Assembly (NCBI RefSeq): GCF_004010195.1
Contig: NC_057758.1
Coordinates: forward strand, 4,828,043-4,892,042
DNA length: 64,000 nt
Direction: 5' to 3'
Source: Chiloscyllium plagiosum
Taxonomy: Eukaryota
Below are positions 7,500 to 64,000 of this stretch, one piece after another. A program made the position numbers and the translations under genes. The notes under the pieces are model-generated. The model was not told where the DNA came from. It saw only the letters and a program-made list of their open reading frames with translations, and ran no database searches. Each line of letters opens with the position of its first letter. The stretch's first letter is position 1.

Positions 7500-9065
7500 C
7501 CATTTTAAGAACTCATGTGTGGGTCTTGCACGTCGCTGGTTGGCCAGTATTGATATTCCAACCCTATTTGACCTTGAGAAGGTGGTGTTGAGTTGCCTAC
7601 TTTTATCGCTGCAGTCCACTTGCTGTGGGTTGACCCAGAATGCCGGTAGGGAGGGAATTCAAGGATTTTGACACAATGACTGTGAAGAAACCGGGGTGTG
7701 GGTGGGTGGGTGTATTTCCAAGTCAGGGTAGTGAGTGGCTTGGAAGGAAACTTGCAGGTGGCAGTGTTTCCAAGTACATGTTGCCTTTAGGCTTCGAGAT
7801 GGAAGTGCTCGTGGGTTTGGAACGTATTCTCTCAGGATGTTTGATGACAGTCTCTCGTACGTCTTGTAAATAGTACGTATTGCTGCTAAGGAATGCTGGT
7901 GGCGGAGGGATTGAATATTTGTAGACGTTGTGCCAAACAAGCGGGTTGCTTTGTCCTGGATGGCGTCAGGCTTCTTGAGTATTGTTGGAGCTGCACGCAC
8001 CAGGCAAATGGGGAGCATTGCATCTCACTCCTATTTTTTGCCTTGTAGATGATGGATAGACTTTGGCATGTCAGGAGGTGAGTTACTTACCGCAGTATCC
8101 CGAGTGCCTGACCGGCTGTTGTTACCAGAGTGTTTATGGGGTGAGTCAAGTTGAGTTTCTGGTCAATGCTAACTCCAAGGATGTTGACAGTGGAGGGTTC
8201 AGTGATGATAATACAGTTGAATGTCACGTGACGTTGATGAGAGTGTCTCTCATTGGTGATTATTATTGTCTGGCATTTGTGAGGCACGAATGTTAGTTGC
8301 CACTTGTCTGCCTAAGCCTGGTTATTGTTCAGGTCTTAGTGCATTTGAGCACGGCCGGCTTCAGTATATGAGGAGTCGTGAATGGTATTGAACACTGTGC
8401 AATAATTGGCGAACATCCACACTACTGATCTCATAACAGAGGGAAGGTCGTTGATGGAAGAGCTGAAGATTGTTAGGCTGAGGACAGGAGGGACTCCTGC
8501 AGAGAATTCCAGGAGCTAAGATGACTGACCCTTCACAACTACAACCACCTTCCATTGTGCCAGGTATGAATTTAATCAGCGCAGTGTTTGCCTCCTAATC
8601 CCCATTGATTCCAGTTTTGCCAGGGATCCTTGATGCCATACTCTGTCAAATGTGACCTTGATGTCAAGGGCGGTCACTGTCACCTCATCTCTAGAATTTA
8701 AGACTTCTGTCCATATTTGAACCAAAGGTATGAAGAGATCAGGAGCTGAGTGACCCTGACAAAATGCAAACTTGGCGTCACTGATCAGGTTGTTACTGAG
8801 CCGGTGCTGCTTGATAGCACTGTTGATGACCCCTTCCATTACTTTCCTGATGATGAAGACTAGAACGATTGGGCGCTGATTGACCAGGCTGGATTTGTCC
8901 TGGTTTTGTGGACAGGAAATACATTAGCAATTTTTCACGTTGTCAGTTCGATGACAGTGTTGTTACTGCCCCCAACCAGCTTCCGGACGCATCAAGTTGT
9001 GGAGCTCACGTTTTCACTTAAATTGCCGCAGTGTTGTCAGAGCCCATTGCCTTTCCAGTATACAT
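7500..9065 (-). mobile_element. Jockey/CR1-group LINE, decayed RT region and 3' end
   Basis: MEGVINSAIKQH..FCQGHSAPDL..ALDIKVTFDRVWHQG, PHKCQ..ILGVSIDQKLN and DAIQDKATRL are non-LTR RT motifs, with stops and frameshifts. Confidence 0.85.
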
Positions 9066-9959
9066 AAGTCCAGCCGTGAAATAATAGTCTGGCTTTAGAT
9101 TGTCAGACCAAAGTGCATGACCTTATACTTTTATTTGCCAAAACGTCCAAATGCCAATTAATTGCCCACTTGCTGATCTTATTTATATACCTTTTGAGAC
9201 TCCTTACATTCTTATTGCAAATTGCCCTCCCACATATCTTTGCACCACCGACAAACACACATACATTGCACTCAACCTGCACCTTCAAGGCATCAGAATA
9301 GATTGCAAATAACTGATATTATAGAACTGATATTAGTGATACTCCAGGTAATACGTCTTTTTTAAACTGATAAAGACAAATTAATCCCGAATCTTAGTCT
9401 TCCGTGTTTTAACCAATCTTCATTCCATGCTAATTTATTATCTGTCGTTTTGTGAGCTTCTGTTTTCTGTAAGGACATTTATTTTGTGGTGTTTATCGAA
9501 ATTTTCCGGAAATAACCATGAACTGTCCACAATTCCCCGTTATCAAGTCAGCATTTTATTTTATCAGTGACCACCACGAAACATTTTCATGATTGAACAG
9601 GACAAACTTCATCTGCCTTTCACAAAACCAGTATAACGCTGTGTCAAGCTTTTTCTAAATATCCTCCAATTCCAACCTCAATAACGATTTCCCGCAAATT
9701 CTAAGCAATAATTATCGAAGCTAAATGGCCGATCGGGGCCTCCTTTGTATATCGCTTCCTTCCTGAAAACAGGTGCCACAATGGACGTTGTCCAGTTTCA
9801 TTGAAACACTCCTGCGTCCTAGAGAGTGATGGAATATTTCAAACAATGCAACCAATCACTCTGTAACCACTACGTTTCACACCCTGTATCTGTTATTGAT
9901 GTGTGAGCTACCCATGCTGTTTTTTTTGTTTTCAAAACTCCTGTGCCTATTATTCCTGA

Positions 9960-12590
9960 CAGCTCAAGAACGGACAACTAGGGTTGTAATTGCAGAGGAT
10001 TCTAATTTTCATATCAACGACTGGGGCTACCAGAGCGTCAAGTACTTAGATTGGAGTAAAAATTGCTCAGTGCATTCAGGAAAGCTTCCTCAAGTCGGGA
10101 GTCCTACTGGAGAAGGGACAAAACTCGACTTACTGTTGGGAAATAGGGGACGACAGTAATTAGACAGGAGCTTGCAGGGGATGATTGAAATACTTTGTCG
10201 ACAGGAAAATTGACCTCTGGCAAGTGGGACGCCTTTAGAAAGTGAGATACCCAGAGTTTAAGTTCAATATGATTCTGTGAGGGTGAAGGGCAAGGCTGGC
10301 AGGAAAAAGGAACCCTGGATGACAAGACATATTGTGGCTTTGAACAGAAAAAAATAAATGAAAGAGTTATGTCTCAGTTATAGGCAACTGGATCAAAGGA
10401 ATCCCAGAGGGTATATAAGGAATACAGGAGTTTACTGAAGATGGAAATCAGGAGGGCGGAAAGCGGGAGTCCTACTGGAGAAGGGACAAAACTCGACTTA
10501 CTGTTGGGAAATAGGGGACGACAGTAATTAGACAGGAGCTTGCAGGGGATGATTGAAATACTTTGTCGACAGGAAAAGAGACCTCTGGCAAGTGGGACGC
10601 CTTTAGAAAGTGAGATACCCAGAGTTTAAGTTCAATATGATTCTATGAGGGTGAAGGGCAAGGCTGGCAGGAAAAAGGAACCCTGGATGACAAGAGATAT
10701 TGTGGCTTTGAACAGAAAAAAATAAATGAAAGAGTTATGTCTCCGTTATCAAAGGAATCCCAGAGGGAATATAGGGAATACAGGAGTTTACTGAAGATGG
10801 AAATCAGGAGGGCGGAAAGGGGGCGGAAGTTAGCCTTGACTGTGAATATTAGGTTGAATCTAAAGAAGTACTTTATGTATATTAAAGGAAAAATAATAAC
10901 TATCGAGAGAAAACACATCTCATGGAGCAACGTGGGTATGTATGTGTCGGAATGCAGGAGATGGCTGGGTTCGTTAAATACATTTTTCCTCTATGTTTTC
11001 TGTGGAGAAAGACATGAAAACTTGGGAAAGATAACGGTTATATTTTGGGGACCGTCCACAGTACTTTAGAAGAAACGTTGGATGCACTAGAATGTATGAA
11101 GGTGAATAAATCTTCTGGTCCTGACCAGGTATTTCCAAAAAGTCTCCAAAAGTCTAGAGAAGAAATTGCAGGGGATTTAGCTGATATTTTTGCATCAACG
11201 TTCGCCACGGGCGAGAACCCGGAAGTCTGGAGGGTAGTGAATGTTGTACATTATTTCAAGTATTGCTGCAAAGAAAAAACTGGGATCTACAGAACATAAA
11301 GCTGAGCAACTATGCTATGTTACAAGAGGTGATTCTGACGAATGATTTACATGCATGTTGGAAAGACGAGGTTTGTTTAGGAATAATCAGCAAGTCTTTG
11401 TGAGTTAGAGATCATGTCAAACAAAATTGTTAAAGTTCTTTGAAAAAGGGGCGAGAAAGCTTGACGAGGACAGGGTTGAAAATGTCTTCCAAATGGATTT
11501 CAGTAAGGTCTCTGATACGGTTCCACATGATAGGTAACTCTGGAATGTTAAATCGCATGGAATCCAGGGCAAGCAGGCAAATTGGATACAGATTAGGATT
11601 AGATGCCTGCGATCAGTGGATTGCCTCATAACTCGGTGCTGTGCCCATCGCTGTTTGAGAGCTACATCAATTATTTGGATGAGAATGTACAAGGCATGAT
11701 TGGCAAATTTGCTGATGACACTAAAATATGCGCTATTGTGGGCAGTGAGTAATGTTCTCAGAAATTGCAGCAGGACTATGAACAGCTGGGGAAGCAGGCC
11801 AAGAAATTTAAGTGGGATTTAACAAAGATGTGTGAGGTCGTGCACTTTGGAATGCCATGATGAATGCTAAGGCTTCAAGGATTGTAGTGGAGCAGAGGGA
11901 TCTCGGAGTTCATGTTCACAGTTCTCTGAAAGTGCCATCGCATGTTGGCAGAGCAGTAAAGTTTGCCACACTGGCCTTCATTAGTCAGGGCACTGAGTGC
12001 AGAAGTTCGGAAGTTATGTTGCAGTTATACAGGATATTGATAGAACTGTATCTGAAGTACTGTGTTCTGTTTTTATTTTGTCACCTTGCTATCGAAATGA
12101 TGCGACCAAACTAGAAAGAGTGCAGAGGAAATTGACAAAAACATTGCCGGGACTCAATGGTCTGAGTTACAGAGAGAGGTTGGACAAGGTAGGATCTTGT
12201 CTTTGGAGTAACTGAGACTGAGGGTAATGGTATTGACGTGTACAGGATCGTGGGAGGCCGTGATAGAGTGAATACACTTAGATGTTTTTTTCAGGGTTGT
12301 GGAATCGCGGACTCGAGGGTATCGCTTGGATGTTCGAAGGAAAATAATAAAGGGCAACCTGAGATGCAACTTTTATTATAGCCACTCGTATACATGCGGT
12401 ATGAGATACAGCAGAAGTGGTAGATATGGTATATTAAGACAAATTGAAAGGTATTAGGACAAATACATGGCTGAGAAAGATTTGGATGGATGCAGAGAAA
12501 AGGGGTTAGCGGGGAAGGACTTCATTGCCAGCACTGACCAGTTTGGGCCAAAGGGGCCTTTCTGAGTGCTGGACGATTCATTTACTGTAG
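9960..12590 (+). mobile_element. Decayed CR1 LINE (ORF2 fragments)
   Basis: KVNKSSGPDQVFP..REEIAG, MDFSK, KFADD and LERVQRKLTKTLPGL motifs. Confidence 0.85.
10096..10820 (+). repeat. 368-bp local tandem duplication, present only in copy 1
   Basis: cgggagtcctactggagaagggac at 10096 and 10464; a single unit at about 21140 in copy 2. Confidence 0.9.
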
Positions 12591-13269
12591 CATAACACCT
12601 GTGGCTTTGCTGATTATATCATTAAAATACTTAGAGGGTCTCCTCTTGCGAAGAGCAATGCAAAATACTCATTTAAATTCTCTGCCTGTTTCCAGTAACC
12701 AATTCCCCAGCACCATTCTTCACGTGTTCCACACATACGTTCCTGCCTTCCTTTAATCCAAGGATCATGCACTCAGCTCTTTTTTTTTTTCGAAACACAC
12801 AGAAAAGTTCTGCCTGTTAGCTTTTTGTTTTACATTTTTCGCCAGCTTACTTTAATAATATATTCTATTTTTTTCCCTACTTTATCCCATGTGCCTCTGC
12901 TTCCGAAAATAAACATCCGAAATCTGGTCGACATGAAAGCTTACCGATTTCTGATTGACTAGGATCCTTGACAGACTTCGTGAACTATGGGTGGTTCATC
13001 TTGGTACTGAGTTCTTTATTCTGAACAGAATCAAATATTGCTGAGCGTTACTAAATATCTGCTTAGGTGTCTGCCCCTGCACACCCATTGACATTCCCCT
13101 GCATCTATTATCACATCCCATTTTCGGCTTGATGTAAGACAAAAAGCTGCAATTTAGATGTTTGTTTATTTTGAATCATTTGCATGTGTCTGAACATTTG
13201 ATCAGCTGAGAGTATCAAAATTCATCCAGTTACTCCGTCTTTGTCCTTTTCATTCGATGATGTCATATT

Positions 13270-14250
13270 CAAGTGGGAAGCCTCTGACAGGGCCTCCTTT
13301 TCCATCAAAGAAAAACATTCCAACTTTCGTGGACAGGGCCTTCAGCTGAATGCCCCATCTCCCGCGCTTCTTACGCACTCCCTCGTCTCCTTTCCAGAAC
13401 AATTATAGAGACTCCCTTGTCCTCAAATCCCACTTCACTGGAATCCCCATTCAAGGAATCTTGCTTCGCCATTTCCATCAACGACAGCAGGACAGCAACA
13501 TGAAACACATCATCCCCTCCCGCCCACTGTCAGCATTTAAACCTCAGTGACATCCTCCATCACCCTCGGCGGCACGGTGGTACAATGGTTAGCACTGCTG
13601 CCTCACAGTGCTCGAGACTCGGGTTAAATCTCGTTTCAAGTGACTGACTGTGTGGAGTTTGCACATTCTCCCCGTGTCTGCGTGGGTTTCCTCCGGGCGC
13701 TCCGGTTTCTTCCCCACAGAGGTTAGGTGAATTGGTCATGCTAAATTACCCGCAGTGTTATGTGAAGGTGTAAATGTAGGGGAATGGGTCTGGGTGGATT
13801 GTGGGGCGGTGTGGGCTTGTTGGGCTGAAGATCCTGTTACCACACTATAAGTAAGTAATCTAATCACCCTCCAGATATCAACACTCCCCTATGGTAGCTT
13901 CCCGTGCACTTACCAATTCACTTTATCCCTTCTCAAAGTACAAGGCCCCAAACACACAGTCCAAGTTAAGCAACATTTCTCTTCAGTCTATTGCCATTGC
14001 TCCTCACAGTGCAATCTCTTTTATATTGGTGAGTCCACACAGAGAAAGCATTGAGGAACACTTCCAGTCTTCCCTATAGGAATAACCATAGCCTTCTCAT
14101 TGTGTCCCATCTGCAAGCTCTAATACTAATATTTCGGTCCTGGGCTGCTGCAATGTTCCAATGAAGCAAAACCGATTCTCTGGTAACACATCACTTTACA
14201 CTTTTGTACTTCACCGTTTCTAAGACTGAGTATGCAATTCCATAATTTAC
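13270..14250 (+). mobile_element. Decayed Penelope-like element fragment interrupted by a SINE
   Basis: ..NYRDSLVL..ILLRHFHQRQQD..KHI is a degenerate form of the NKDRTPLVLTFHP..ILRHFRHLQ region seen at 32340-33056. Confidence 0.55.
13568..13866 (+). mobile_element. HE1/V-SINE (tRNA-derived) with probable TSD atcaccctc
   Basis: Head ggcggcacggtggtacaatggttagcactgctgcctcacag, V-domain tggagtttgcacattctccccgtgtctgcgtgggtttcc, taatct tail; atcaccctc on both sides. Confidence 0.9.
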
Positions 14251-14479
14251 AGTCTGACCCCATTATGACTGTTCTACATTTTTCATTGTCTCCCCTCCCC
14301 CATAACAGTCTACCACCCAGAATTCCTAATATGTTGTGTGATTTATCATATTCATCTTGCACTCAATAGTGAAGACCGGATTCCCCCATTCACACATTCA
14401 TTTACACAAACTTTACATCTTCTCCTTTTGCACCACAATTAAAAGCCTGTTTGTTTTAGGCACAACGTTTAAAAAAAAA

Positions 14480-15830
14480 CGCAACACCAGATTATATTCC
14501 AACAGATCTATTTGGAAGCATTAGGTTCGGAGTGCTGCTCCTTTATCAATTGATTGTGGAGAATACAATTGTAAGACACAGAATTTATAGCGAAAGTTTA
14601 CAGTGTGACACAGCTGAAATTATATGTTGAAAAACACCCGTATTGATTCTTTCATATGTAAATCGCAAAAAAAAAAATTCAGTTACGTTCTCAAGTGCAC
14701 TTTAACAATTGATGTCATGTTGGCCCATATAAGGTATTGAAGGTGTTAATTCCCTGTGAGGCTGTCTGCGCCACAATGGTCAGACTGATTCAAATCTTTT
14801 AAAAATGGATTTGTACGATTTTACATAGATTCTTGCAGCAAATGAAAATGTAATTCTTCAAGTTCAAATTCACCACACAAACTTATATGTGAATGTATGC
14901 GTGTGGGGCGTTGAGGTGGTGGTTATGAGTTTCTGTGTAACGGTGTGTGTATGTGTGTGAGTGTGATTGTAAAGGGATTTAAGTCTTTGACAAGATGTGT
15001 GTGGAAATGTATGTGTGACTATATGAGATAGAGTGTGTGTTTGTGTGTTTGTGTGTGCGCATCTGTGTCTGTGTGTGTGTATGTGTATGTCTGTGTGTAG
15101 ATGGTGCAATGGGGTCACCAAGGTCCCGGTTGAGTCCATTCCCATTGGTACCGAACTTGCCTATCAGCCTCTGCTGAGCCACTTTTCATTGTTGCCTGTC
15201 TCGAAGTCCGCCTTGGAGGATGGTCACCCAAAGGTCCGAGGTCGAATGTCCTGGACCGCTGAAGTGTTCTCTGACTAGGAGGGAACATTCCTGTCTGTTG
15301 ATTGTTCTGTGGTGTCCATTCATCCATTCTCGTAGCCTCTGTTTGGTCTCTCCAATATGCCATGCCTCAGGGCATCCTTGCCTACAGCGTATGAGAGATA
15401 CAACGTTGGCCGATTTCGCTTAAGTACCTGCCACATACAATGGTGGGATGTATCCCCACGCATAATGGTGATGTCCGTGGTATATTTTGGCACAGACAGC
15501 TTCACAGGTAGTTAACACTTCAATACCATATCTGGACCGACATGACACCAATTGTTAAGGTGCACTTGAGAATGTAACTTTTAAAAATAAAGTTTTGCAA
15601 TTTTTGTATGAAAGAAAATCCGCATCTTTTTCAATGTATAATTGCAGTTACATCACAGTGTAAACTTTTGCTGTAAATCCTTTACAATCACAATCTTATA
15701 CTCCACAATCACCTGATGATGGGGCAGCGCTTAGAAAGCTAGTGCTTCCAAATAAACGTGTTGTACTATGACATGGTGTTGTCTGATTTTTAACTTTGCC
15801 ACTCCAGTCCAACACCGGCATCTCCAAATC
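14480..15830. mobile_element. Penelope-like fragment (GIY-YIG end on minus strand) with inverted terminal pieces and a (TG)n tract
   Basis: Minus strand ..AEQRLIGKFGT..GLNRDLG; terminal sequence at 15540-15830 (cacctgatga..gaaagctagtgcttccaaataaac) recurs inverted at 14480-14730. Confidence 0.65.
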
Positions 15831-16329
15831 ATGTTTTAGGCACTGAACCGCTACACAATGTGTTTCTGATCAAACCTCCTTCACTTCTATCAAGAAAGTT
15901 AAAAGGCCATTTCCCAATCATTTTGTGTTCTGAAGAAGTGCCACGCTTTTTCTCTATTTGTCTGTCCACTGTGATGCATCCTGACCTACTGAGATTATCC
16001 AGAAATGAGCAGGCACAGAACATATTATCAAAGAAATGTGAACACTGGAAATCTGCAAATGGCTGGAGTAACTGGGAGATTTAACGAAGGGTCACTGGAC
16101 CAGAAAGATTAACTTTGTTTTCACTGCTCAGATGCTGCCTGAGCTGCTTAGCTGTTCCAACAATTTCTGTTTTTAAACAAGTTCCAAAGACGTGTGTCAC
16201 CGCCTCTCAAACACCCTGTTAAACATGGAGCGCCATCCAACGGAAGTGAACAATGACACACGTGCACAAGTTAACTGGTTCTGCATAAGGCTGGCATCAC
16301 TGACACTACAGAGGTATTAATCATGGTCA

Positions 16330-17215
16330 TGGAGAGAAAGAAAAAAACACTTTCTTTTTAAACACAGAAGATGGCACTACTGGAAGAAGGAAAGATTCAT
16401 TTTAATATGTTAGAGGATCCTGATGAATTTGAATTATTGGAGGCTTGACACCATGGAGACAAGAATGAGAATATTAAAATGTTACCACATCAAAAAACAG
16501 TTTGGATCGCACGGCTGATGGACGAATGCGTCTCGAACAGAATTGGGGAGCAGAACTTTATTGCACGTATTGAATCTCAAAAGTGACCAATCACGTGGTG
16601 AAGTAGACAACAACAGCAACTGAAGCAAATTTGCACTCAACCACACTCTGAAACTTTTCTGCCCATTCTATCATTACAATCAAACCCGTGTATGTTTCAG
16701 TGATGAGTGTAATGGAACATAATAGGATCAGAACCATGTGTACCTGAAAATGATGTCAACTACTTAAAGCTACCGAACTTGACCGATTGCATTCCAAACA
16801 GCAGAATTAACATTTGATGGAGAAGGCGAAATGATCCCATGACTAACTGATCAAATCTAAGCACTGCAGTCCTGCCACGTGCTATCATAAATGGTGATGA
16901 ATTACAGCATAATTCACTGCAGCAGATGGACCTACAAATATCCCTATCTTGAATAACAGAACCACCCTGCCCATCTGTGTAAAGGATAAGCATGTAATAA
17001 CTACACCATGCTCAGCCAGAAGTGTCGATTGGATGTTCCACCTCACCCTGGTTACGATTTCCACAGAATTACAGATGCCAGACATCAATTTATTTCGTTC
17101 ACTGCACGTGACAGCAAGAAACAGCTGAACACATTAGATACGATAATGACAATGGGCCTTGACACTATTCCAGCATTAAGACTGAAGACGTGTACTGCGA
17201 AATAAGCCAAAATAA
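16330..17215 (+). mobile_element. Decayed LINE endonuclease/RT-linker fragment (same family as 7500-9065)
   Basis: KKQLNTLDTIMTMGLDTIPALRLKTC corresponds to the KAMGPDNIP.VLKTC motif. Confidence 0.65.
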
Positions 17216-17240
17216 TCCATAGGTTCTTTATGCAGAGAGT

Positions 17241-17740
17241 NNNNNNNNNNNNNNNNNNNNNNNNNNNNNNNNNNNNNNNNNNNNNNNNNNNNNNNNNNNN
17301 NNNNNNNNNNNNNNNNNNNNNNNNNNNNNNNNNNNNNNNNNNNNNNNNNNNNNNNNNNNNNNNNNNNNNNNNNNNNNNNNNNNNNNNNNNNNNNNNNNNN
17401 NNNNNNNNNNNNNNNNNNNNNNNNNNNNNNNNNNNNNNNNNNNNNNNNNNNNNNNNNNNNNNNNNNNNNNNNNNNNNNNNNNNNNNNNNNNNNNNNNNNN
17501 NNNNNNNNNNNNNNNNNNNNNNNNNNNNNNNNNNNNNNNNNNNNNNNNNNNNNNNNNNNNNNNNNNNNNNNNNNNNNNNNNNNNNNNNNNNNNNNNNNNN
17601 NNNNNNNNNNNNNNNNNNNNNNNNNNNNNNNNNNNNNNNNNNNNNNNNNNNNNNNNNNNNNNNNNNNNNNNNNNNNNNNNNNNNNNNNNNNNNNNNNNNN
17701 NNNNNNNNNNNNNNNNNNNNNNNNNNNNNNNNNNNNNNNN
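17241..17740. other. Assembly gap (500 N)
   Basis: N run. Confidence 1.
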
Positions 17741-17767
17741 TCGTTTTGGACATTCGCCCTTCAGCAG

Positions 17768-17890
17768 GAATTCCTAATGAAGGGCTTATGCCCGAACCGT
17801 CAAATCTCCTGCTCCTCTGATGCTGCTTGACCGGCTGTGCCTTTCGAGAACCACAATCTTCATCTCTGATCTCCAGCATCTGAGTGCTCA
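17768..17890 (+). mobile_element. Penelope terminal-repeat fragment with degenerate hammerhead motif
   Basis: cctaatgaagggcttatgcccgaaccgtc..gatgctgcttgaccggctgtgc. Confidence 0.7.
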
Positions 17891-17954
17891 GTTTCTGCTG
17901 GATGCAATAATTGCCAAACGCGTGTATTCATTAACTGAAAATACTGTGTCTTCT

Positions 17955-17960
17955 TATAAA
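17955..17960 (+). promoter_or_regulatory. Candidate TATA box of the beta-defensin-like gene
   Basis: TATAAA beginning 58 bp upstream of the ATG at 18013. Confidence 0.55.
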
Positions 17961-18012
17961 TGAATGCTGGGCTTGGATCATCTCAGTATCGCTCCAAGGA
18001 GATCAGCTGAAT

Positions 18013-18106
18013 ATGTGGGGAGCACAGCTCTTGGTGTTTGTGCTTCTGCTCCTGGAACAGCCCATCGAATCTGAATGTGGATTAAGAGGACGGATGCTGA
18101 ATGGGG
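18013..18106 (+). CDS. defb-like: Beta-defensin-like gene, exon 1 (signal peptide and short pro-piece)
   Basis: MWGAQLLVFVLLLLEQPIESECGLRGRMLNG(G); hydrophobic core; ends G|gtaagg (phase 1). Confidence 0.8.
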
Positions 18107-18515
18107 GTAAGGAAGCCTTTCATTCTTCAATCTGACGAGCCACTCCGAGAGATGGGAGGCATTGACGGAACTGAAACGTCATTCAGGTGAATCATTCTTT
18201 ATGCCAAACCGAGAGCACAGAGCTCAGTATCTGGCTCCACCTCCCCTGTCCAAATCACAGAAGAATGACAGTGTGCATTCCCTGTCTGCATTCTCGATAA
18301 CAGACCACAGTCGACTACGGTGCATTGACCATGTCGCTACTTCTCCTAATAGACCATGCTGGGAGTGCATCGTTCAGACCCTTTCTCTATCGCTCTGCCC
18401 AGACTACACGAGGAGCACAGTGCACTTTTCCTGTCAAATTTCGCTTTTCCCAAACACACTTGGAGCACCTTGCATAAGCCTGTCGACTTATACTCTGGAA
18501 TTGTTTTCCTTTCAG

Positions 18516-18634
18516 GGGAGATCTTTGGATGCGACAGAATTATTGGGACCTGTAGAAAAACGTTTTGTTGGAGCGATGAGTACATAGTCCCTAACAGATG
18601 TTTCTGGGGTTATAACTGCTGCGTGGTCAAATGA
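18516..18634 (+). CDS. defb-like: Beta-defensin-like gene, exon 2 (mature peptide)
   Basis: ttgttttcctttcag| acceptor; phase-1 join gives GEIFGCDRIIGTCRKTFCWSDEYIVPNRCFWGYNCCVVK*; C-x6-C-x4-C-x10-C-x5-CC with GxC and a Glu after Cys3; 94+119 = 213 nt, in frame. Confidence 0.85.
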
Positions 18635-18676
18635 TGAAAACAACTGGCGAGTTGTTACTGTCGACTGTGACGTCAG

Positions 18677-21600
18677 TGTGGGTTGACCCAGAATGCCTGT
18701 AGGGAGGGAATTCAAGGATTGTGACACAATGACTGTGAAGAAACCGGGGTGTGGGTGTATTTCCAAGTCAGGGTAGTGAGTGGCTTGGAAGGAAACTTGC
18801 AGGTGGCAGTGGTTCCAAGTACATGTTGCTTTTAGGCTTCAAGATGGAAGTGATCGTGGGTTTGGAACGCATTCTCTCAGGATGTTTGATGAAATTCTCT
18901 CGTACGTCTTGTAAATAGTACGTATTGCTGCTATGGAATGCTGGTGGCGGAGGGATTGAATATTTGTAGAAGTTGTGCCAAACAAGCGGGTTGCTTTGTC
19001 CTGGATGGCGTCAGGCTTCTTGAGTGTTGTTGGAGCTGCACGCACCAGGCAAATGGGGAGCATTGCATCTCACTCCTATTTTTTGCATTGTAGATGATGG
19101 ATAGACTTTGGCGTGTGAGGAGGTGAGTTACTTACCGCAGTATCCGGAGTGCCTGACCAGCTGTTGTTACCAGAGTGTTTATGGGGTGAGTCAAGTTGAG
19201 TTTCTGGTCAATGTTAACTCCAAGGATGTTGACAGTGGAGGGTTCAGTGATGATAATACAGTTGAATGTCACGTGACGTTGATGAGAGTGTCTCTCATTG
19301 GTGATTATTATTGCCTGGCATTTGTGTGGCACGAATGTTAGTTGCCACTTGTCTGCCTAAGCCTGGTTATTGTTCAGGTCTTAGTGCATTTGAGCACGTC
19401 TGGCTTCAGTATATGAGGAATTGTGAATGGTATTGAACACTGTGCAATCATTGGCGAACATCCACGCGACTGATCTCATAACAGAGGGAAGATCGTTGAT
19501 GGAAGAGCTGAAGGTTGTTAGGCTGAGGACAGGAGGGACTCCTGCAGAGAATTCCAGGAGCTAAGATGACTGACCCTTCACAACTACAACCACCTTCCAT
19601 TGTGCCAGGTATGAATTTAATCAGCGCAGTGTTTGCCTCCTAATTCCCGTTGATTCCAGTTTTGCCAGGGATCCTTGATGCCATACTCCGTCAAATGTGA
19701 CCTTGATGTCAAGGGCAGTCACTCTCACCTCATCTCTAGAATTTAGGACTTCTGTCCATATTTGAACCAAAGATATGAAGAGATCAGGAGCTGAGTGGCC
19801 CTGACAAAATGCAAACTTGGCGTCACTGATCAGGTTGTGACTGAGCCGGTGCTGCTTGATAGCACTGTTGATGACCCCTTCCATTACTTTCCTGATGATG
19901 AAGACTAGACTGATTGGGTGGTGATTGACCAGGCTGGATTTGTCCTGATTTTGTGGACAGGAAATACATTAGCAATTTTTCACGTTGTCAGTTCGATGCC
20001 AGTGTTGTTACTGCCCCCAACCAGCTTACGGGCGCATCAAGTTGTGGAGCTCACGTTTTCACTTAAATTGCCGCAGTGTTGTCAGATCCCATTGCCTTTC
20101 CAGTATACATATTTCCAGCCGTGAAATAATAGTCTGGCTTTTGATTGTCAGACCAAAGTGCATGACCTTATACTTTTATTTACCAAAACGTCCAACTGCC
20201 AATTAGTTGCCCACTTGCTGATCTTATCTATATACCTTTTGAGACTCCTTACATTCTTATTGCAAATTGCCCTCCCACATATCTTTGCACCACCGACAAA
20301 CACACATATATTGCACTCAACCTGCACCTTCAACAATCAGAATAGATTGCAAGTAACTGATATTATAGAACTGATATCAGTGATACTCCAGGTAATACGT
20401 CTTTTTTAAACTGATAAAGACAAATTAATCCCGAATCTTAGTCTTCCATGTGTTAACCAATCTTCATTCCATGCTAATTTATTATCTGTCGTTTTGTGAG
20501 CTTCTGTTTTCTGTAAGGACGTTTATTTTGTGGTGTTTATCGAAAGTTTCCGGAAATAACCATGAACTGTCCACAATTCCCCGTTATCAAGTCAGCATTT
20601 TATTTTATCAGTGACCACCACGAAACATTTTCATGATTGAACAGGACAAACATCATCTTCCTTTCACAAAACCAGTATAACGCTGTGTCAAGCTTTTTCG
20701 AAATATCCTCCAATTCCAACCTCAATAACGATTGCCCGCAAATTCTAAGCAAGACTTATCAAAGCTAAATGACCGATCGGGACCTCCTTTGTATATCGCT
20801 TCCTTCTTGAAAACAGGTGCCACAATGGACGTTGTCCAGCTTCATTGAAACACTCCTGCGTCCTAGAGAGTGCTGGAATATTTCAAACAATGCAACCAAT
20901 CACTCTGTAACCATTTCGTTTCACACCCTGTATCTGTTATTGCTGTGTGAGCTACCCATGCTGTTTCTTTTGTTTTCAAAACTCCTGTGCCTATTATTCC
21001 TGACAGCTCAAGAACGGACATCTAGGGTTGTAATTGCAGAGGATTCTAATTTTCATATCAAAGACTGGGGCTACCAGAGCGTCAAGTACTTAGATTGGAG
21101 TAAAAATTGCTCAGTGCATTCAGGAAAGCTTCCTCAAGTCGGGAGTCCTACTGGAGAAGGGACAAAACTCGACTTACTGTTGGGAAATAGGGGACGACAG
21201 TAATTAGACAGGAGCTTGCAGGGGATGATTGAAATACTTTGTCGACAGGAAAATTGACCTCTGGCAAGTGGGACGCCTTTAGAAAGTGAGATACCCAGAG
21301 TTTAAGTTCAATATGATTCTGTGAGGGTGAAGGGCAAGGCTGGCAGGAAAAAGGAACCCTGGATGACAAGACATATTGTGGCTTTGAACAGAAAAAAATA
21401 AATGAAAGAGTTATGTCTCAGTTATAGGCAACTGGATCAAAGGAATCCCAGAGGGTATATAAGGAATACAGGAGTTTACTGAAGATGGAAATCAGGAGGG
21501 CGGAAAGGGGGCGGAAGTTAGCCTTGACTGTGAATATTAGGTTGAATCTAAAGAAGTACTTTATGTATATTAAAGGAAAAATAATAACTATCGAGAGAAA

Positions 21601-24600
21601 ACACATCTCATGGAGCAACGTGGGTATGTATGTGTCGGAATGCAGGAGATGGCTGGGTTCGTTAAATACATTTTTCCTCTATGTTTTCTGTGGAGAAAGA
21701 CATGAAAACTTGGGAAAGATAACGGTTATATTTTAGGGACCGTCCACAGTACTTTAGATGAAACGTTGGATGCACTAGAATGTATGAAGGTGAATAAATC
21801 TTCTGGTCCTGACCAGGTATTTCCAAACAGTCTCCAAAAGTCGAGAGAAGAAATTGCAGGGGATTTAGCTGATATTTTTGCATCAACTTTCGCCACGGGC
21901 GAGAACTCGGAAGTCGGGAGGGTAGTGAATGTTGTTCATTATTTCAAGAATTGCTGCAAAGAAAAAACTGGGATCTACAGAACATAAAGCTGAGCAACTA
22001 TGCTCTGCTACAAGAGGTGATTCTGACGAATGATTGACATGCATGTTGGAAAGACGAGGTTTGTTTAGGAATAATCAGCAAGTCTTTGTGAGTTAGAGAT
22101 CATGTCAAACAAAATTGTTAAACGTCTTTGAAAAAGGGGCGAGAAAGCTTGACGAGGACAGGGTTGAAAATGTCTTCCAAATGGATTTCAGTAAGGTCTC
22201 TGATACGGTTCCACATGATAGGTAACTCTAGAATGTTAAATCGCATGGAATCCAGGGCAAGCAGGCAAATTGGATACACAATTGGCTTGATGGTAGGAAG
22301 CAGGAAGTAATAGTGGAAGGAAACCTTTAGGATTAGATGCCTGCGATCAGTGGATTGCCTCATAACTCGGTGCGGTGCCCATCGCTGTTTGAGAGCTACA
22401 TCAATTATTTGGATGAGAATGTACAAGGCATGATTGGCAAATTTGCTGATCAAACTAAAATATGCGCTATTGTGGACAGTGAGTAATGTTCTCAGAAATT
22501 GCAGCAGGACTATGAACAGCTGGGGAAGCAGGCCAAGACATTTAAGTGGGAGTTAACAAAGATGTGTGAGGTCGTGCAATTTGGACTGTCATGGTGAATG
22601 CTAAGGCTTCAAGGATTGTAGTGGAGCAGAGGGATCTCGGATTTCATGTTCACAGTTCTCTGAAAGTGCAATCGCATGTTGGCAGAGCAGTAAAGTTTGC
22701 CACACTGGCCTTCATTAGTCAGGGCACTGAGAACAGAAGTTCGGAAGTTATGTTGCAGTTATACAGGATATTGATCGATCTGAAGTACTGTGTTCTGTTT
22801 TTATTTTGTCACCTTGCTATCGGAATGATGCCACCAAACTAGAAAGAGTGCAGAGGAAATTGACAAAAACGTTGCCGGGACTCAATGGTCTGAGTTACAG
22901 AGAGAGGTTGGACAAGGTAGGATCTTGTCTTTGGAGTAACTGAGACTGAGGGGAATCGTATAGACGTGTACAGGATCGTGGGAGGCCGTGATAGAGTGAA
23001 TACACTTAGATGCTTTTTTCAGGGTTGTGGAATCGCGGACTCGAGGGTATCGCTTGGAGGTTCGAAGGAAAATAATAAAGGGTAACCTGAGATGCAACTT
23101 TTATTATAGCCACTCGTATGCATGCGGTATGAGATACAGCAGAAGTGGTAGATATGGTATATTAAGACAAATTGAAAGGAATTAGGACAAATACATGGCT
23201 GAGAAAGATTTGGATGGATGCAGAGAAAAGGGGTTAGCGGGGAAGGACTTCATTGTCAGCACTGACCAGTTTGGGTCAAAAGGGCCTTTCTGAGTGCTGG
23301 ACGATTCATTTACTGTAGCATAACACCTGTGGCTTTGCTGATTATATCATTGAAATACTTAGAGGGTCTCCTCTTGTGAAGAACAATGCAAAATACTCAT
23401 TTAAATTCTCTGCCTGTTTCCAGTAACCAATTCCCCAGCACCATTCTTCACGTGTTCCACACATACGTTCCTGCCTTCCTTTATTCCAAGGATCATGCAC
23501 TCAGCTCATTTTTTTTTCGAAACACACAAAAAAGTTCTGCCTGTTAGCTTTTTTTTTCATTTTTCGCCAGCTTACTTTAATAATATATTCTATATTTTTT
23601 TCCTACTTTATCCCATGTGCCTCTGCTTCCTAAAGAAAACATCCGAAATCTGATCGACATGAAAGCTTACCGATTTCTGATTGACTGGGATCCTTGACAG
23701 ACTTCGTGAACTATGGGTGGTTCATCTTGGTACTGAGTTCTTTATTCTGAATAGAATCAAATATTGCTGAGCGTTACTAAATATCTACTTAGGTGTCTGC
23801 CCCTGCACACCCATTGACATTCCCCTGCATCTATTATCACATCCCATTTTCGGCTTGATGTAAGACAAAAAGCTGCAATTTAGATGTTTGTTTATTTTGA
23901 ATCATTTGCATGTGTCTGAACATTTGATCAGCTGAGAGTATCAAAATTCATCCAGTTACTCCGTCTTTGTCCTTTTCATTCGATGATGCCATATTCAAGT
24001 GGGAAGCCTCTGACAGGGCCTCCTTTTCCATCAAAGAAAAGCATTCCAACTTTCGTGGACAGGGCCTTCAGCTGAATGCCCCATCTCCCGCGCTTCTTAA
24101 GCACTCCCTCGTCTCCTTTCCAGAACAATTATAGAGACTCCCTTGTCCTCAAATCCCACTTCACTGGAATCCCCATTCAAGGAATCTTGCTTCGCCATTT
24201 CCATCAACGACAGCAGGACAGCAACATGAAACACATCATCCCCTCCCGCCCACTGTCAGCATTTAAACCTCAGTGACATCCTCCATCACCCTCGGCGGCA
24301 CGGTGGCACAGTGGTTAGCACTGCTGCCTCACAGTGCTCGAGACTCGGGTTAAATCTCGTTTCAAGTGACTGACTGTGTGGAGTTTGCACATTCTCCCCG
24401 TGTCTGCATGGGTTTGCTCCGGGCGCTCTGGTTTCTTCCCACAGAGGTTAGGTGAATTGGTCATGCTAAATTACCCGCAGTGTTATGTGAAGGTGTAAAT
24501 GTAGGGGAATGGGTCTGGGTGGATTGTGGGGCGGTGTGGGCTTGTTGGGCTGAAGATCCTGTTACCACACTATAAGTAAGTAATCTAATCACCCTCCAGA

Positions 24601-27600
24601 TATCAACACTCCCCTATGGTAGCTTCCCGTGCACTTACCAATTCACTTTATCCCTTCTCAAAGTACAAGGCCCCAAACACACAGTCCAAGTTAAGCAACA
24701 TTTCACTTCAGTCTATTGCCATTGCTCCTCACAGTGCAATCACTTTTACATTGGTGAGTCCACACAGAGAAAGCATTGAGGAACACTTCCACTCTTCCCT
24801 TTAGGAATAACCATAGCCTTCTCATTGTGTCCCATCTGCAAGCTCTAATACTAATATTTCGGTCCTGGGCTGCTGCAATGTTCCAATGAAGCAAAACCGA
24901 TTCTCTGGTAACACATCACTTTACACTTTTGTACTTCACCGTTTCTAAGACTGAGTATGCAATTCCATAATTTACAGTCTGACCCCATTATGACTGTTCT
25001 ACATTTTTCATTGTCTCCCCTCCCCCATAACAGTTTACCACCCAGAATTCCTAATATGTTGTGTGATTTATCATATTCATCTTGCACTCAATAGTGAAGA
25101 CCGGATTCCCCCATTCACACATTCATTTACACAAACTTTACATCTTCTCCTTTTGCACCACAATTAAAAGCCTGTTTGTTTTAGGCACAACGTTTAAAAA
25201 AAACGCAACACCAGATTATATTCCAACAGATCTATTTGGAAGCATTAGGTTCGGAGTGCTGCTCCTTTATCAATTGATTGTGGAGAATACAATTGTAAGA
25301 CACAGAATTTATAGCGAAAGTTTACAGTGTGACACAGCTGAAATTATATGTTGAAAAACACCCGTATTGATTCTTTCATATGTAAATCGCAAAAAAACAA
25401 AATTTCAGTTACGTTCTCAAGTGCACTTTAACAATTGATGTCATGTTGGCCCATATAAGGTATTGAAGGTGTTAATTCCCTGTGAGGCTGTCTGCGCCAC
25501 AATGGTCAGACTGATTCAAATCTTTTAAAAATGGATTTGTACGATTTTACATAGATTCTTGCAGCAAATGAAAATGTAATTCTTCAAGTTCAAATTCACC
25601 ACACAAACTTATATGTGAATGTATGCGTGTGGGGCGTTGAGGTGGTGGTTATGAGTTTCTGTGTAACGGTGTGTGTATGTGTGTGAGTGTGATTGTAAAG
25701 GGATTTAAGTCTTTGACAAGATGTGTGTGGAAATGTATGTGTGACTATATGAGATAGAGTGTGTGTTTGTGTGTTTGTGTGTGCGCATCTGTGTCTGTGT
25801 GCGTGTATGTGTATGTCTGTGTGTAGATGGTGCAATGGGGTCACCAAGGTCCCGGTTGAGTCCATTCCCATTGGTACCGAACTTGCCTATCAGCCTCTGC
25901 TGAGCCACTTTTCATTGTTGCCTGTCTCGAAGTCCGCCTTGGAGGATGGTCACCCAAAGGTCCGAGGTCGAATGTCCTGGACCGCTGAAGTGTTCTCTGA
26001 CGAGGAGGGAACATTCCAGTCTGTTGATTGTTCTGTGGTGTCCATTCATCCATTCTCGTAGCCTCTGTTTGATCTCTCCAATATGCCATGCCTCAGGGCA
26101 TCCTTGCCTGCAGCGTATGAGAGAGACAACGTTGGCCGATTTCGCTTAAGTACCTGCCACATACAATGGTGGGATGTATCCCCACGCATAATGGTGATGT
26201 CCGTGGTATATTTTGGCACAGACAGCTTCACAGGTAGTTAACACTTCAATACCATATCTGGACCGAAATGACACCAATTGTTAAGGTGCACTTGAGAATG
26301 TAACTTTTAAAAATAAAGTTTTGCAATTTTTGTATGAAAAAAATCCGCGTTTTTTTCAATGTTTAATTGCAGTTACATCACAGTGTAAACTTTTGTTGCA
26401 AATTCTTTACAATCACAATCTTATACTCCACAATCACCTGATGATGGAGCAGCGCTTAGAAAGCTAGTGCTTCAAAGTAAACGTGTTCTACTATGACATG
26501 GTGTTGTCTGATTTTTAACTTTGCCACTCCAGTCCAACACCGGCATCTCCAAATCATGTTTAGGCACTGAACAGCTACACAATGTGTTTCTGATCAAACC
26601 TCCTCCACTTCTATCAAGAAAGTTAAAAGGCCATTTCCCAATCATTTTGTGTTCTGAAGAAGTGTCACGCTTTTTCTCTATTTGTCTGTCCACTGTGATG
26701 CATCCTGACCTACTGAGATTATCCAGAAATGAACAGGCACAGAACATATTATCAAAGAAATGTGAACACTGGAAATCTGCAAATGGCTGGAGTAACTGGG
26801 AGCTTTAAAGAAGGGTCACTGGACCAGAAAGATTAACTTTGTTTTCACTGCTCAGATGCTGCCTGATCTGCTTAGCTGTTCCAACAATTTCTGTTTTTAA
26901 ACAAGTTCCAAAGACGTGTGTCAACGCCTCTCAAACACCCTGTCAAACATGGAGCGGCATCCAACGGAAGTGAACAATGACACACGTGCACAAGTTAACT
27001 GGTTCTCCATAAGGCTGGCATCACTGCCACTACAGAGGTATTAATCATGGTCATGGAGAGAAAGAAAAAAACACTTTCTTTTTAAACACAGAAGATGGCA
27101 CTACTGGAAGAAGGAAAGATTCATTTTAATATGTTAGAGGATCCTGATGAATTTGAATTATTGGAGGCGTGCCACCATGGAGACAAGAATGAGAATATTA
27201 AAATGTTACCACATCAAAAAACAGTTTGGATCGCACGGCTGATGGACGAATGCGTCTCGAAGACAATTGGGGAGCAGAACTTTATTGCACGTATTGAATC
27301 TCAAAAGTGACCAATCACGTGGTGAAGTAGACAACAACAGCAACTGAAGCAAATTTGCACTCAACCACACTCTGAAACTTTTCTGCCCATTCTACCATTA
27401 CAATCAAACCCGTGTATGTTTCAGTGATGAGTGTAATGGAACATAATAGGATCAGAACCATGTGTACCTAAAAATGATGTCAACTACTTAAAGCTACCGA
27501 ACTTGACCGATTGCATTCCAAACAGCAGAATTAACATTTGATGGAGAAGGCGAAATGATCCCATGACTAACTGATCAAATCTAAGCACTGCAGTCCTGCC

Positions 27601-27965
27601 ACGTGCTATCATAAATGGTGATGAATGACAGCATAATTCACTGCAGCAGATGGACCTACAAATATAGGTGGTTCTTGAATAACAGAACCACCCTGCCCAT
27701 CTGTGTAAAGGATAAGCATGTAATATCTACACCATGCTCAGCCAGAAGTGTCGATTGGATGTTCCACCTCACCCTGGTTACGATTTCCACAGAATTACAG
27801 ATGCCAAACATCAATTGATTTCGTTCACTCACGTGACAGCAAGGAACAGCTGAACACATCAGATACGACAATGACAATGGGCCTTGACACTATTCCAGCA
27901 TTAAGACCGAAGACGTGTACTGCGAAATAAGTCAAAATAATCCATAGGTTCTTTATGCAGAGAGT
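18677..27965 (+). repeat. Segmental duplication, copy 2 (same LINE, CR1, PLE and SINE mosaic as copy 1)
   Basis: Starts at tgtgggttgacccagaatgcc (equals 7624) and matches copy 1 up to ttctttatgcagagagt. Confidence 0.95.
24294..24590 (+). mobile_element. HE1/V-SINE (duplicate of 13568-13866)
   Basis: Same head, V-domain, tail and flanks. Confidence 0.9.
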
Positions 27966-34740: not shown

Positions 34741-35240
34741 NNNNNNNNNNNNNNNNNNNNNNNNNNNNNNNNNNNNNNNNNNNNNNNNNNNNNNNNNNNN
34801 NNNNNNNNNNNNNNNNNNNNNNNNNNNNNNNNNNNNNNNNNNNNNNNNNNNNNNNNNNNNNNNNNNNNNNNNNNNNNNNNNNNNNNNNNNNNNNNNNNNN
34901 NNNNNNNNNNNNNNNNNNNNNNNNNNNNNNNNNNNNNNNNNNNNNNNNNNNNNNNNNNNNNNNNNNNNNNNNNNNNNNNNNNNNNNNNNNNNNNNNNNNN
35001 NNNNNNNNNNNNNNNNNNNNNNNNNNNNNNNNNNNNNNNNNNNNNNNNNNNNNNNNNNNNNNNNNNNNNNNNNNNNNNNNNNNNNNNNNNNNNNNNNNNN
35101 NNNNNNNNNNNNNNNNNNNNNNNNNNNNNNNNNNNNNNNNNNNNNNNNNNNNNNNNNNNNNNNNNNNNNNNNNNNNNNNNNNNNNNNNNNNNNNNNNNNN
35201 NNNNNNNNNNNNNNNNNNNNNNNNNNNNNNNNNNNNNNNN
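34741..35240. other. Assembly gap (500 N)
   Basis: N run. Confidence 1.
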
Positions 35241-46369: not shown

Positions 46370-49300
46370 AAGTCTCTACAACGCATCGGCAATTACATTT
46401 TCGCGTCATGCCACATACACAATTGTCAAATTGAATGACTGCACCAAAACGTTCCATTTAAACAGCCTGGTACTTTTGTCCTTAAAATTTCCCACAAATG
46501 TCAATGCGTTGTGATCAGTGGACAGGATTATCTCTGATGCATTGCTGGTAATACAAACATTGAAATGTTGTTCGGCCAACACCAAGCTTAATGTCTCTTT
46601 CTCCACCGTTTACTACGTTTTTTTGATGAACGTTCAACTTCCTTCAAAAAATAACCCATGGGCCTTTCTGTCCCTTCGTCATCCTCCTGCAGAATCACCC
46701 CGCCGACACCCTCATCATTGGCATCGTTAGCCACTTTGAAAGACTTCATGTAATCCGGTGTGGCTAATACAGGTGCAGTGGTTAACACTGTCTTTAGGCT
46801 GTCAATTGCCCTTTGACAGTCCCTATTCACTGAGACTTCTTGTCTTTTTTTAACAATTCAGTCTGTGGTGCAGCCACACTGAAAAATTTCGTTAAAATCC
46901 ACTCAATCCCAGGAACGATAGAACTGCGTTTTTTTTTTGTCGTCTGTTGGGGAAATTACAAAATTTCTTTCGTTTTTGCATCCCGTGGGGCCATTTGTCC
47001 ATGCTCAATAACATGGCCGAGGAAGGTGACTTAGGAATTGGCAATTTCACTTTTAGTCACATTTAGCACCAAATCTGCCTTCCGAAGTCGATCGAACAAG
47101 TCCGGTTAATGCTGTAACAATTCGTTCCATGAGTGAGCAACATTCACCAGAATATCAATATACAGTTGGGAAATCCGGCAATGACCGTATTAGCCAGTCT
47201 CTGAAATGTGGCTGGATCGTTTTTCATACCAAATGGCATGACTTTGAACTGATACAGTCCATTTGGCGATGGGAAACCGAAATTTGCTGTCTCTTACTCG
47301 TCGGTCGCCTCTGAGCAAGTCCAACATAGAAAAATGATTTGCGTGTCCCATGGTTTCGAAACAGACCTCCAACATTGGAATTGGATGTGCATCCGTCGTT
47401 TTAATGGCGTTGACTTTGCGATAGTCCACACATAATCGTTGGGTACCTTCTGGCTTTGTTACCATGAGTATGGGTGTGGTCCAGCCTCTGTAAACCTACT
47501 TCGATTATGCCATTTGGATTATGCGCTTTGTGTCCTTCTGAACCTGTGCTAACTTTAGAGAGTTATGCCTGTAAGGATGTTGCTTAATCGAAACAGAGTC
47601 TCCTTTACCTTCGTCATGCACATTTAGGTTAGAACTTCCCAATTGTATCTCCCCATGTGGTTGTTGTAATTCTTTCAGGTCATTTCTATTTTACTGTGGA
47701 AGGTAACTCAGTCTTTATCCCAATTTTTGACAACTTCCTGGTTGTCCAATGTGATTTGAAGACTGTCCAATTCAGAATCCTCTGCACTTGATTCTTCCTT
47801 CTGTGTTGTCGTCTTTAATACCTTCTCCTCTTACTTTCATTCCCTTCAAAATACTTCTTGGGCATATTCACATGACACAGCCTGCGAGATTTCTTCGTGT
47901 CTGGAGTCCTTATCAAGTAGTTCACGTCACTCAATTTCTTCTCAATTTGATATTGTCCACTAAACCTTACTTTTAAAACCACACTTGTTCCTGGAAGAAA
48001 CACCAATACCTTATCCCAAATTCCAAAATTGCGAATTTGCGATTTTTTATCCGTGTCCTGTCTCATTGTACGCTGTGATACTTTTAAATGCTGTCTAGCC
48101 AATTTTCCAACACTATTTGAGTGCTATCTAAGAATTGATAGATAGGCCAAATGGGTGGTCTCTGCATCCTGAAATTAATTTCTTATTAGTCAATTTTAAC
48201 GTTTCTCTTAATTCATGCTCAAAAATTAATTCACACGGACTGAATTTGGTCGATTCTTTCGGTGCAGTTCTGATTACAAATGGTACAAACGGAATTCTCT
48301 TATCAGAACCATCAGATAATCCTGACCATAAGCTCTTAAAATGGTATTTACTGTTTGATCGCATCTTTGTTGCGCTTCCCGCGATTCCAGATGGTACACA
48401 GTAGATTTGAGTTGTTTTATTTCCCAAGTCATCCACAACCTCCTTGAATAGTTTAGAAGTTTGATCCTTGATCTGACTGGATCTCTATTCGTAGTCTGTA
48501 CCGAGTTAAACAAAAAAGTAATTATTTTACAATCCATTCTGTGGCACCTCCATTCTGTAACGCATTCACTTTCTTTCTCTGTATATGCATTTTGATATAA
48601 CTGGTTTAGCTCCTCTATGAATATTTTGCACCAGTATTTACTGTGTAAAAGGACATGGAAGATATAGACTGTAGGGAAATCGATGGTGATATCTTGCAAA
48701 ATGTCCAGATTAAAGAGGAGGAAGTGCTGGATATCCTGAAACGGTTAAAGGTGGATAAATCCCCAGGACCTGATCAGGTGTCGAGAACTTGGTGGGAAGC
48801 TAGAGAAGTGATTGCTGGGCCTCTTGCTGAGATATTTGTATCATCGATAGTCACAGGTGAGGTGCCGGAAGACTGGAGGTTGGCTAACGTGGTGCCACTG
48901 TTTAAGAAGGGTTGTCAGGACAAGCCAGAGAACTATAGACAAGTGAGTCTGACCTCGGTGGTGGGCAAGTTGTGGGGAATCCTGAGGGACAGGATGTATT
49001 TGTATTTGGAAAGGCAAGGGTTGATTCGGGATAGTCATCATGGCTTTGTGCGTGGGAAATCATGTCTCACAAAATTGATTGAGTTTTTTGATGAAGTAAC
49101 AAAGAAGATTGATGAGGGCAGAGCAGTAGATGTGATCTATATGGACTTCAGTAAGGCGTTCGACAAAGTTCCCCATGGGAGACTGATTAGCATGGTTAGA
49201 TCTCATGGAATGCAGGGAGAACTAGCCATTTGGATACAGAACTGGCTTAAAGGTAGAAGACAGAGGGTGGTGGTGAAGGGTTGTTTTTCAGACTGGAGGC

Positions 49301-63360: not shown

Positions 63361-64000
63361 AGGAGTAACAGGTCAACAGTTACACTGTACAGAGGTACAG
63401 AAGAATTAAATTCTTTGATGCTGAGATATGATGAGATATGTCTTTCAGAAGGACTAATGGACAGATGAGAACTGTTCCACTACGTGAAGTGTGTTTGGAG
63501 TGTCCGGTGAAATCATCAACAAAATTATTCCAAAACTGAAAGGAAGACCTTGACCTTGGTGCTGGTGTTGTAATATTTCAGCATTTAAGTTGCCAATAAC
63601 ATTTTAAAAAGAAATTTACATACTGATCATAATCCCTTGAAGTTTTGGAGAAATTTAAGGAGAAAAATTCAGCCTGTTTAGATAGGGCTTATTATTGCAG
63701 CCACTCAATTTTGAAAATTATTTAGGGGCTTGGACGAAAAAAACGTAATTGCCCACACGTTGTTCAGACTTGGATGAAGAAAGTAAAAGGAGTTCTGAGC
63801 CAGGAGTGTATGACTAAAGCCTTATTCTTTCTTTATTAATAAATTAAACAACATATATATTTAAAACAGTTATTTTCTGCTTTTTTTTCTTCTTGAAGAG
63901 ATGACTTAATGGAGGAGCTGCTGAACCACCGCCTGAAAATGGCTGCAGTAAATGACTTGGGCGACATTTACTTTTTTTTAAAATGGTAATAACCAAGGTA

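Follow-up and report, generated by a model that had tools for sequence, protein, structure and literature searches.

Does the stretch of shark DNA at 17955..18634 hold a working beta-defensin gene? The window, by which we mean the whole stretch of 64,000 nucleotides from Chiloscyllium plagiosum analyzed here, had been read from its letters alone as carrying one intact two-exon gene of this kind. Our analysis upholds the anatomy and the family of that gene, and finds that it is not the single gene described but one among dozens of copies, with its 3' end at the breakpoint of a local duplication.

The anatomy is compact and runs along the forward strand. A TATAAA box (17955..17960) lies 58 nt upstream of the ATG at 18013, which opens a first coding exon (18013..18106) of 94 nt, or 31 codons plus 1 nt, followed directly by a phase-1 GTAAGG donor. 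The phase-1 GT-AG intron (18107..18515) spans 409 nt and closes with a pyrimidine tract and CAG, and the second coding exon (18516..18634) carries the six-cysteine domain (18530-18622) and ends in TGA. Joined, the two exons give 213 nt, a frame of 70 amino acids plus stop, and each of these elements agrees with what the sequence-only reading had proposed. The cysteines are spaced C-x6-C-x4-C-x10-C-x5-CC, a pattern that occurs once in the whole 64-kb window, and a seventh cysteine lies in exon 1, at residue 22; no further copy of the family, whole or broken, lies elsewhere in the window. Upstream of the promoter we find a fragment of a high-copy repeat (17741..17884), present in the close paralogues too, with very high contig depth and BLAST matches to L003, L005-L007 and other loci, and beyond it the flank of the gene is hidden by 500 N at 17241-17740. 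The TATA box holds the same position in most copies of the subfamily and is altered in L007, L008, L014 and L017.

The genome around this copy is well supplied with relatives. Exon 2 as query found 33 matches, the promoter and exon-1 region 26, and four divergent members together with PF00711 many more; the PF13841 profile run over the genome gave five partial matches, all below cut-off, and three weak genome matches (L027, L028 and L033) were dropped for missing cysteines. Among the stretches that we fetched, 51 places carry a six-cysteine open frame, amounting to 46 distinct peptides, and 45 of the 51 keep the exact 6-4-10-5 spacing. Nine large contigs hold 33 of these places: 13 on C49, the contig on which the window copy sits, 8 on C46, three each on C50 and C8, two on C16, and one each on C38, C39, C43 and C45. 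These counts are lower bounds, since beyond the fetched stretches there are about 60 matches to unplaced contigs and a few more to large ones, and copies on unplaced contigs, where many near-identical ones sit on short pieces, may be alleles.

What do these places share beyond their cysteines? An AG lies exactly 14 nt 5' of Cys1 in 44 of the 51, where AG has a background frequency of 0.066; this is the acceptor position of the phase-1 intron already recognized in the window copy. Of 49 places, 39 have AATAAA or ATTAAA no more than 250 nt past the stop (0.23 expected by chance) and 10 do not. An upstream hydrophobic phase-1 exon was found at 21 of the 51 places by a search allowing 15-44 codons, and these candidates measure 31 codons in 17 cases, 30 in three and 32 in one. 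All 17 aligned rows agree at the six cysteines and at Gly10, Arg13 and Glu21, and likewise in the G-x-C motif that had been pointed out in the window copy. Identity between members falls to 29%, and members with 29-47% identity still agree in where they are spliced, in how long exon 1 is and in where the poly(A) signal lies. That such distant members keep their cysteines along with Gly10, Arg13 and Glu21 shows long-term selection on a true gene family. A tree of 45 peptides over 38 columns supports 9 of 42 branches and is too weak for the deep ones.

Some members depart from the common plan. Four places have 4-4-10-5 spacing, with a phase-1 acceptor of their own or an altered one. L025 and L026 (C49 at 8.0 Mb; C99810) form a subfamily with four residues between Cys1 and Cys2, an acceptor 2 nt before Cys1, a Lys-rich tail of 25 residues and a charge of about +9. 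L078 is a tandem pair of near-identical exon-2 copies 383 nt apart (C46, 3859755 and 3860138). A divergent six-cysteine subfamily (L097-L100 and L113-L120) lies in units of 2-8 kb that are 85-92% identical to one another, on C8, C23, C38, C7, C11, C32 and unplaced contigs, beside satellite-like repeats, with 43 matches where 40 of 24,408 candidates were scored. These units gave no recognizable exon 1, transposase or terminal repeat, and may be either duplicates that have been scattered or mobile elements with a defensin exon on board.

How secure is the name beta-defensin? The window copy itself has no Pfam match and no PDB sequence match, while five relatives lie above the PF00711 cut-off: that cut-off was passed by 4 of 14 relatives in one scan and 1 of 22 in another, hence 5 of the 36 proteins scanned, of which 22 have some beta-defensin Pfam match. 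L005, 87% identical to the window copy, matches PF13841 at E 0.004, below cut-off, and the family profile finds PDB entries weakly (E 0.07 for DEFB106, E 0.63 for AvBD3). In two AlphaFold2 models of exon 2 alone (pLDDT 77.6 and 78.5) there are three short strands, and the best fold match of these models is human beta-defensin 4 (5ki9), at a low score (Z 4.5, rmsd 2.0, 36 residues aligned). Next come beta-defensin 2, helianthamide, an oyster big defensin, and defensins from birds and crocodiles; alpha-defensins, big defensins and anemone peptides all fall within about one Z unit of the best match, and Foldseek gave no match at E <= 0.001, its values being E >= 1. These low and tied scores of the predicted models support the trans-defensin fold and do not separate the families within it. 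In the Atlas a PF00711 cluster comes up at 0.85, which we take as no more than a lead.

Protein databases hold almost nothing closer. A profile search of 1.84 billion representatives returned seven matches, six of which were dropped as long multi-stretch proteins, the four inspected being repeats, and the one true relative appears mis-modelled. This is GCC16467.1 (UniRef100_A0A401REA7) of Chiloscyllium punctatum, a 'hypothetical protein' auto-named 'Beta-defensin' in UniRef, whose six cysteines all align and which is 68% identical to the paralogue L072 and 32% to the window copy; that the sole true relative comes from this species agrees with the shark origin that had been read from the letters. 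It belongs to a different subfamily from the window copy, and because its N-terminus is unlike the family signal exon, its gene model looks as if it starts inside the intron. A word search of 5.8 billion proteins found nothing near and nothing longer, P0003 matching only itself. A literature search that took in no subscription journals found no description of beta-defensins from cartilaginous fish, sharks included, and in the accessible part of PMC10707392 the word 'defensin' occurs only among the references. The window copy is a true two-exon gene copy of the beta-defensin family.

The peptide is predicted to be a secreted precursor. Residues 6-14 of the exon-1 peptide form a hydrophobic core (Kyte-Doolittle mean 3.78) and, since residues 16-20 of divergent paralogues end in small residues, the comparison suggests a signal peptide of residues 1-20 (18013..18072), cut after residue 20. 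Among 21 distinct exon-1 peptides, 16 have Arg or Lys as residue 27, which suggests a propiece of seven residues (18073..18093) that contains Cys22 and ends at Arg27, the probable cleavage site. Removing it would drop the unpaired Cys22 and leave about 43 residues. Four residues separate Arg27 from the intron in the window copy, and three to five follow position 27 across the 21 candidates. Exon 1 had been called a signal exon, a label that suits the predicted signal and undersells the exon, which encodes about 11 further residues: at 94 nt it exceeds the 55-58 bp of exon 1 in sea bass, and flounder beta-defensins, of 67-77 aa, have a proregion of 5-15 aa (PMC8231796, in the sections available).

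For those members of the family that work, we envisage that the TATA promoter would drive transcription, that a single splice would follow, and that the predicted 20-residue signal would direct the product into the secretory pathway, where trimming after Arg27 would likely remove the unpaired Cys22 and the remainder would fold into the predicted three-disulfide beta-defensin domain, for which the expected pairing is C1-C5, C2-C4 and C3-C6, with a likely role in mucosal host defense. Many mammalian epididymal beta-defensins act in signaling or reproduction. Could the shark family do the same, working on sperm, egg case or epithelial coating rather than killing microbes? Net charge over the 51 places ranges from -3 to +9 and is +1 or less in 15 of them, and low or negative charge of this kind favors such a role, as does a grouper beta-defensin found mainly in pituitary and testis (PMC3004800, in the part available); the subgroup L009-L013, however, is charged at +4 to +5, and we regard a signaling or reproductive role as possible but rather doubtful. 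The window copy's own exon-2 net charge is +1 because a private Trp codon stands where its sisters have Arg or Gln. Among the bases private to this copy is the T at 18569.

The subfamily to which this copy belongs has partly decayed. Both exons can be seen in 18 copies; with an intact frame defined as a start, an in-phase donor, an acceptor and six cysteines, 8 of these are frame-intact and 10 are broken. Two of the eight have an altered TATA box, two (the window copy and L006) lack the poly(A) hexamer and one is uncheckable for it, which leaves L009, L010 and L013 looking complete. Between the two subgroups, exon 2 has diverged by 0.17-0.19 and the intron by 0.185-0.205, with dN/dS at about 1.2 on 3.75 synonymous differences in 22 sites. 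The exon has diverged as much as the intron, a pattern that relaxed selection could give, and so could positive selection combined with purifying selection; a ratio close to 1 in peptides that retain their cysteines might also come from positive selection, although the synonymous count is small.

It is at its 3' end that the window copy parts from its relatives. Homology to every sister stops at 18675, 41 nt past the TGA, leaving a remnant of 3' UTR (18635..18675). In most sisters an ATTAAA lies at roughly +113 to +120 from the stop, past the point where homology to the window copy ends; no AATAAA or ATTAAA follows its stop before the AATAAA at 21397..21402, on the same strand and 2.76 kb past the stop, a possible substitute signal. 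The claim that the gene is intact thus holds for its frame, splice sites and TATA box but not for its 3' end. Beyond the remnant lies a segment at 18677..27965 that window self-BLAST identifies as a copy, at about 97%, of 7624-17240, in the forward orientation. This local duplication of about 9.6 kb has the defensin fragment at its breakpoint, and the poly(A) signal is missing because sister homology ends at 18675, where the duplicate is fused on. The duplicate begins with an antisense LINE-type reverse-transcriptase fragment (18677..19947, reverse strand; tblastn with the window's RVT_1 frame aligns 19947-19414), a genome-wide repeat whose own 3' tail is missing at the junction and retained in the other copy of the segment, at 7624. 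The two sides of the junction (18675/18677) share no sequence or microhomology, and the lost 3' UTR was not found elsewhere in the window or in neighboring stretches. Between close sisters, similarity at about 95% reaches as far as some 9 kb on the upstream side and 8 kb on the downstream side, whereas the window copy shares with them only 17741-18675. Its intron has a deletion at about 18192-18194 that makes it some 217-221 nt shorter than in close paralogues, the introns of L005-L008 measuring 629-631 nt.

The window has other features of note. A second local duplication of at least 2.6 kb links 61404-64000 to L112:3708-6318, at 95%, just past the window's end; a 65-nt tandem repeat runs for 11.2 copies, followed by 3.3 inverted copies of its unit (53204-54349); and a LINE reverse-transcriptase open frame of 287 aa lies at 48649-49509 (PF00078, E 4e-19). 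Pfam assigns no family to 18 of the window's 20 long frames; of the other two, one is a LINE reverse transcriptase and one gives a weak match below cut-off.

On balance we favor the view that the window copy is a recently duplicated member of the family that lost its poly(A) region at the duplication breakpoint, and that for this reason it likely yields little or no peptide. We hold this as the better-supported reading rather than a settled one, and the missing hexamer is no proof of silence, given that family members at 10 of 49 places also lack it within 250 nt.

Might the copy still be active? It would then read through the antisense LINE to a new poly(A) site, for example at 21397, and deliver a secreted beta-defensin variant. 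A repeat-filled 3' UTR of 2.8 kb would be needed for this, and purifying selection is not seen in a subfamily where 10 of 18 two-exon copies are broken; the TATA box, ATG, splice sites, frame and six cysteines are nevertheless all intact, the stop is located in the last exon and an AATAAA is on hand at 21397. We consider continued activity rather unlikely.

A further explanation lays the 3' junction and the intron deletion to errors of assembly in a collapsed array, the real gene being normal and intact. In its favor, the gene begins 200 nt past a 500-N stretch, near-identical copies are numerous on short unplaced contigs, and the sequence between the 500-N runs at 17241-17740 and 34741-35240 is exactly 17,000 bases long, as a scaffolding piece might be. 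The runs X1 and X3 behave as DNA, their reads spreading evenly over the intron and forming no spliced joint. They yield contigs of relatives at 95-99% identity that show the undeleted intron form only and lack the private Trp codon, which leaves room for an assembly error or a copy-number variant; these runs hold 35% of the words, though, and may come from other individuals or a sister species. The junction, moreover, lies in unbroken sequence with no repeat or microhomology to mislead an assembler, and we judge such an error distinctly improbable. Of two RNA runs, the single-cell run X5, sampled to 2%, gave 57 reads, all on flanking repeats, and X6, sampled to 6%, gave none, so that neither is informative on expression.

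That the cysteine pattern arose by chance in repeat-derived DNA and marks no gene, as the repeats on its flanks and its lack of Pfam and PDB matches might hint, has next to no probability, being refuted by the conservation of acceptor, poly(A) signal and exon-1 length across the family. Simulation speaks against it too: the strict pattern appeared in none of 100 simulated 64-kb sequences (order-3 Markov) and a loose one six times.

Granted that the family is real, how does it compare with known defensins? It shares with vertebrate beta-defensins (PF00711, PF13841; 5ki9, beta-defensin 2 1fd3, DEFB106 2lwl, mallard AvBD3 7lzl) the six cysteines ending in CC, the G-x-C motif and the phase-1 intron before the cysteine domain, and, as far as prediction goes, the three-strand fold and the signal exon. 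Its spacing falls within the range given for lizards, C-X(6-7)-C-X(3-5)-C-X(8-14)-C-X(5-7)-CC, and the large birth-and-death clusters seen here also have a parallel there, in the 63 beta-defensins of one lizard (PMC12278569, accessible portion). Unlike those relatives, the shark family has a near-fixed 6-4-10-5 spacing, a 94-nt exon 1 with a predicted propiece, a seventh cysteine in the window copy's subfamily, and members on at least nine large contigs. Cathepsin B marks the beta-defensin cluster of reptiles and mammals (PMC12278569), whereas the shark family does not lie beside it: around the only PF08127 match, on C9, the surrounding 200 kb, of which 10.8 kb is N, contain no six-cysteine exon. 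L121 and L122 (C9, 579 kb) are the cathepsin B propeptide exons.

Teleosts such as sea bass, salmon and flounder have the six-cysteine domain in common with the shark. Their genes, however, have three exons and number up to seven, whereas the shark family has two exons, like mammals, and dozens of copies, so the proposed likeness to the mammalian rather than the teleost layout is borne out (PMC8231796, in the sections available). Big defensins (Cg-BigDef1 6qbk, Cg-BigDef5 8bgk), at Z 3.7, are among the tied fold matches. Beta-defensins and big defensins both have a phase-1 intron ahead of their cysteine region (PMC7203481), and the oyster genes, which have a signal, an Arg-ending propeptide and a separate cysteine exon (PMC3182236; both sources in part), parallel the layout described here. 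Unlike big defensins, the shark family has neither an N-terminal hydrophobic domain nor an R-X-K/R-R furin motif, and we reject that assignment, exon 1 having 30-32 codons in 21 of 21 candidates and thus no room for the domain. Alpha-defensins have C1-C6 pairing and a cysteine array that opens with C-x-C, and the six residues of the first spacing here set that family aside as well.

What, then, does the locus mean? We see even chances that it opens onto a large, still-expanding and apparently undescribed shark repertoire, of at least 46 distinct peptides on several small chromosomes away from cathepsin B, whose two-exon pre-pro layout (a 20-residue signal, a 7-residue Arg-ending propiece and an intron 14 nt before Cys1) is ancestral in jawed vertebrates and forms a link to big defensins, with the window copy as one member caught at a breakpoint. 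Because its 3' end is damaged, that copy is a poor representative; L009, L010 and L013, in which the frame, the TATA box and the poly(A) signal all survive, are better ones, and the evolutionary interest rests with the family, nearly missing from protein databases, more than with the window copy. The shark peptides may function in salt and urea. Dozens of beta-defensins in a cartilaginous fish would date the peptides, their two-exon layout and their large expansions to the ancestor of jawed vertebrates, and the small three-exon set of teleosts would, if so, look derived.
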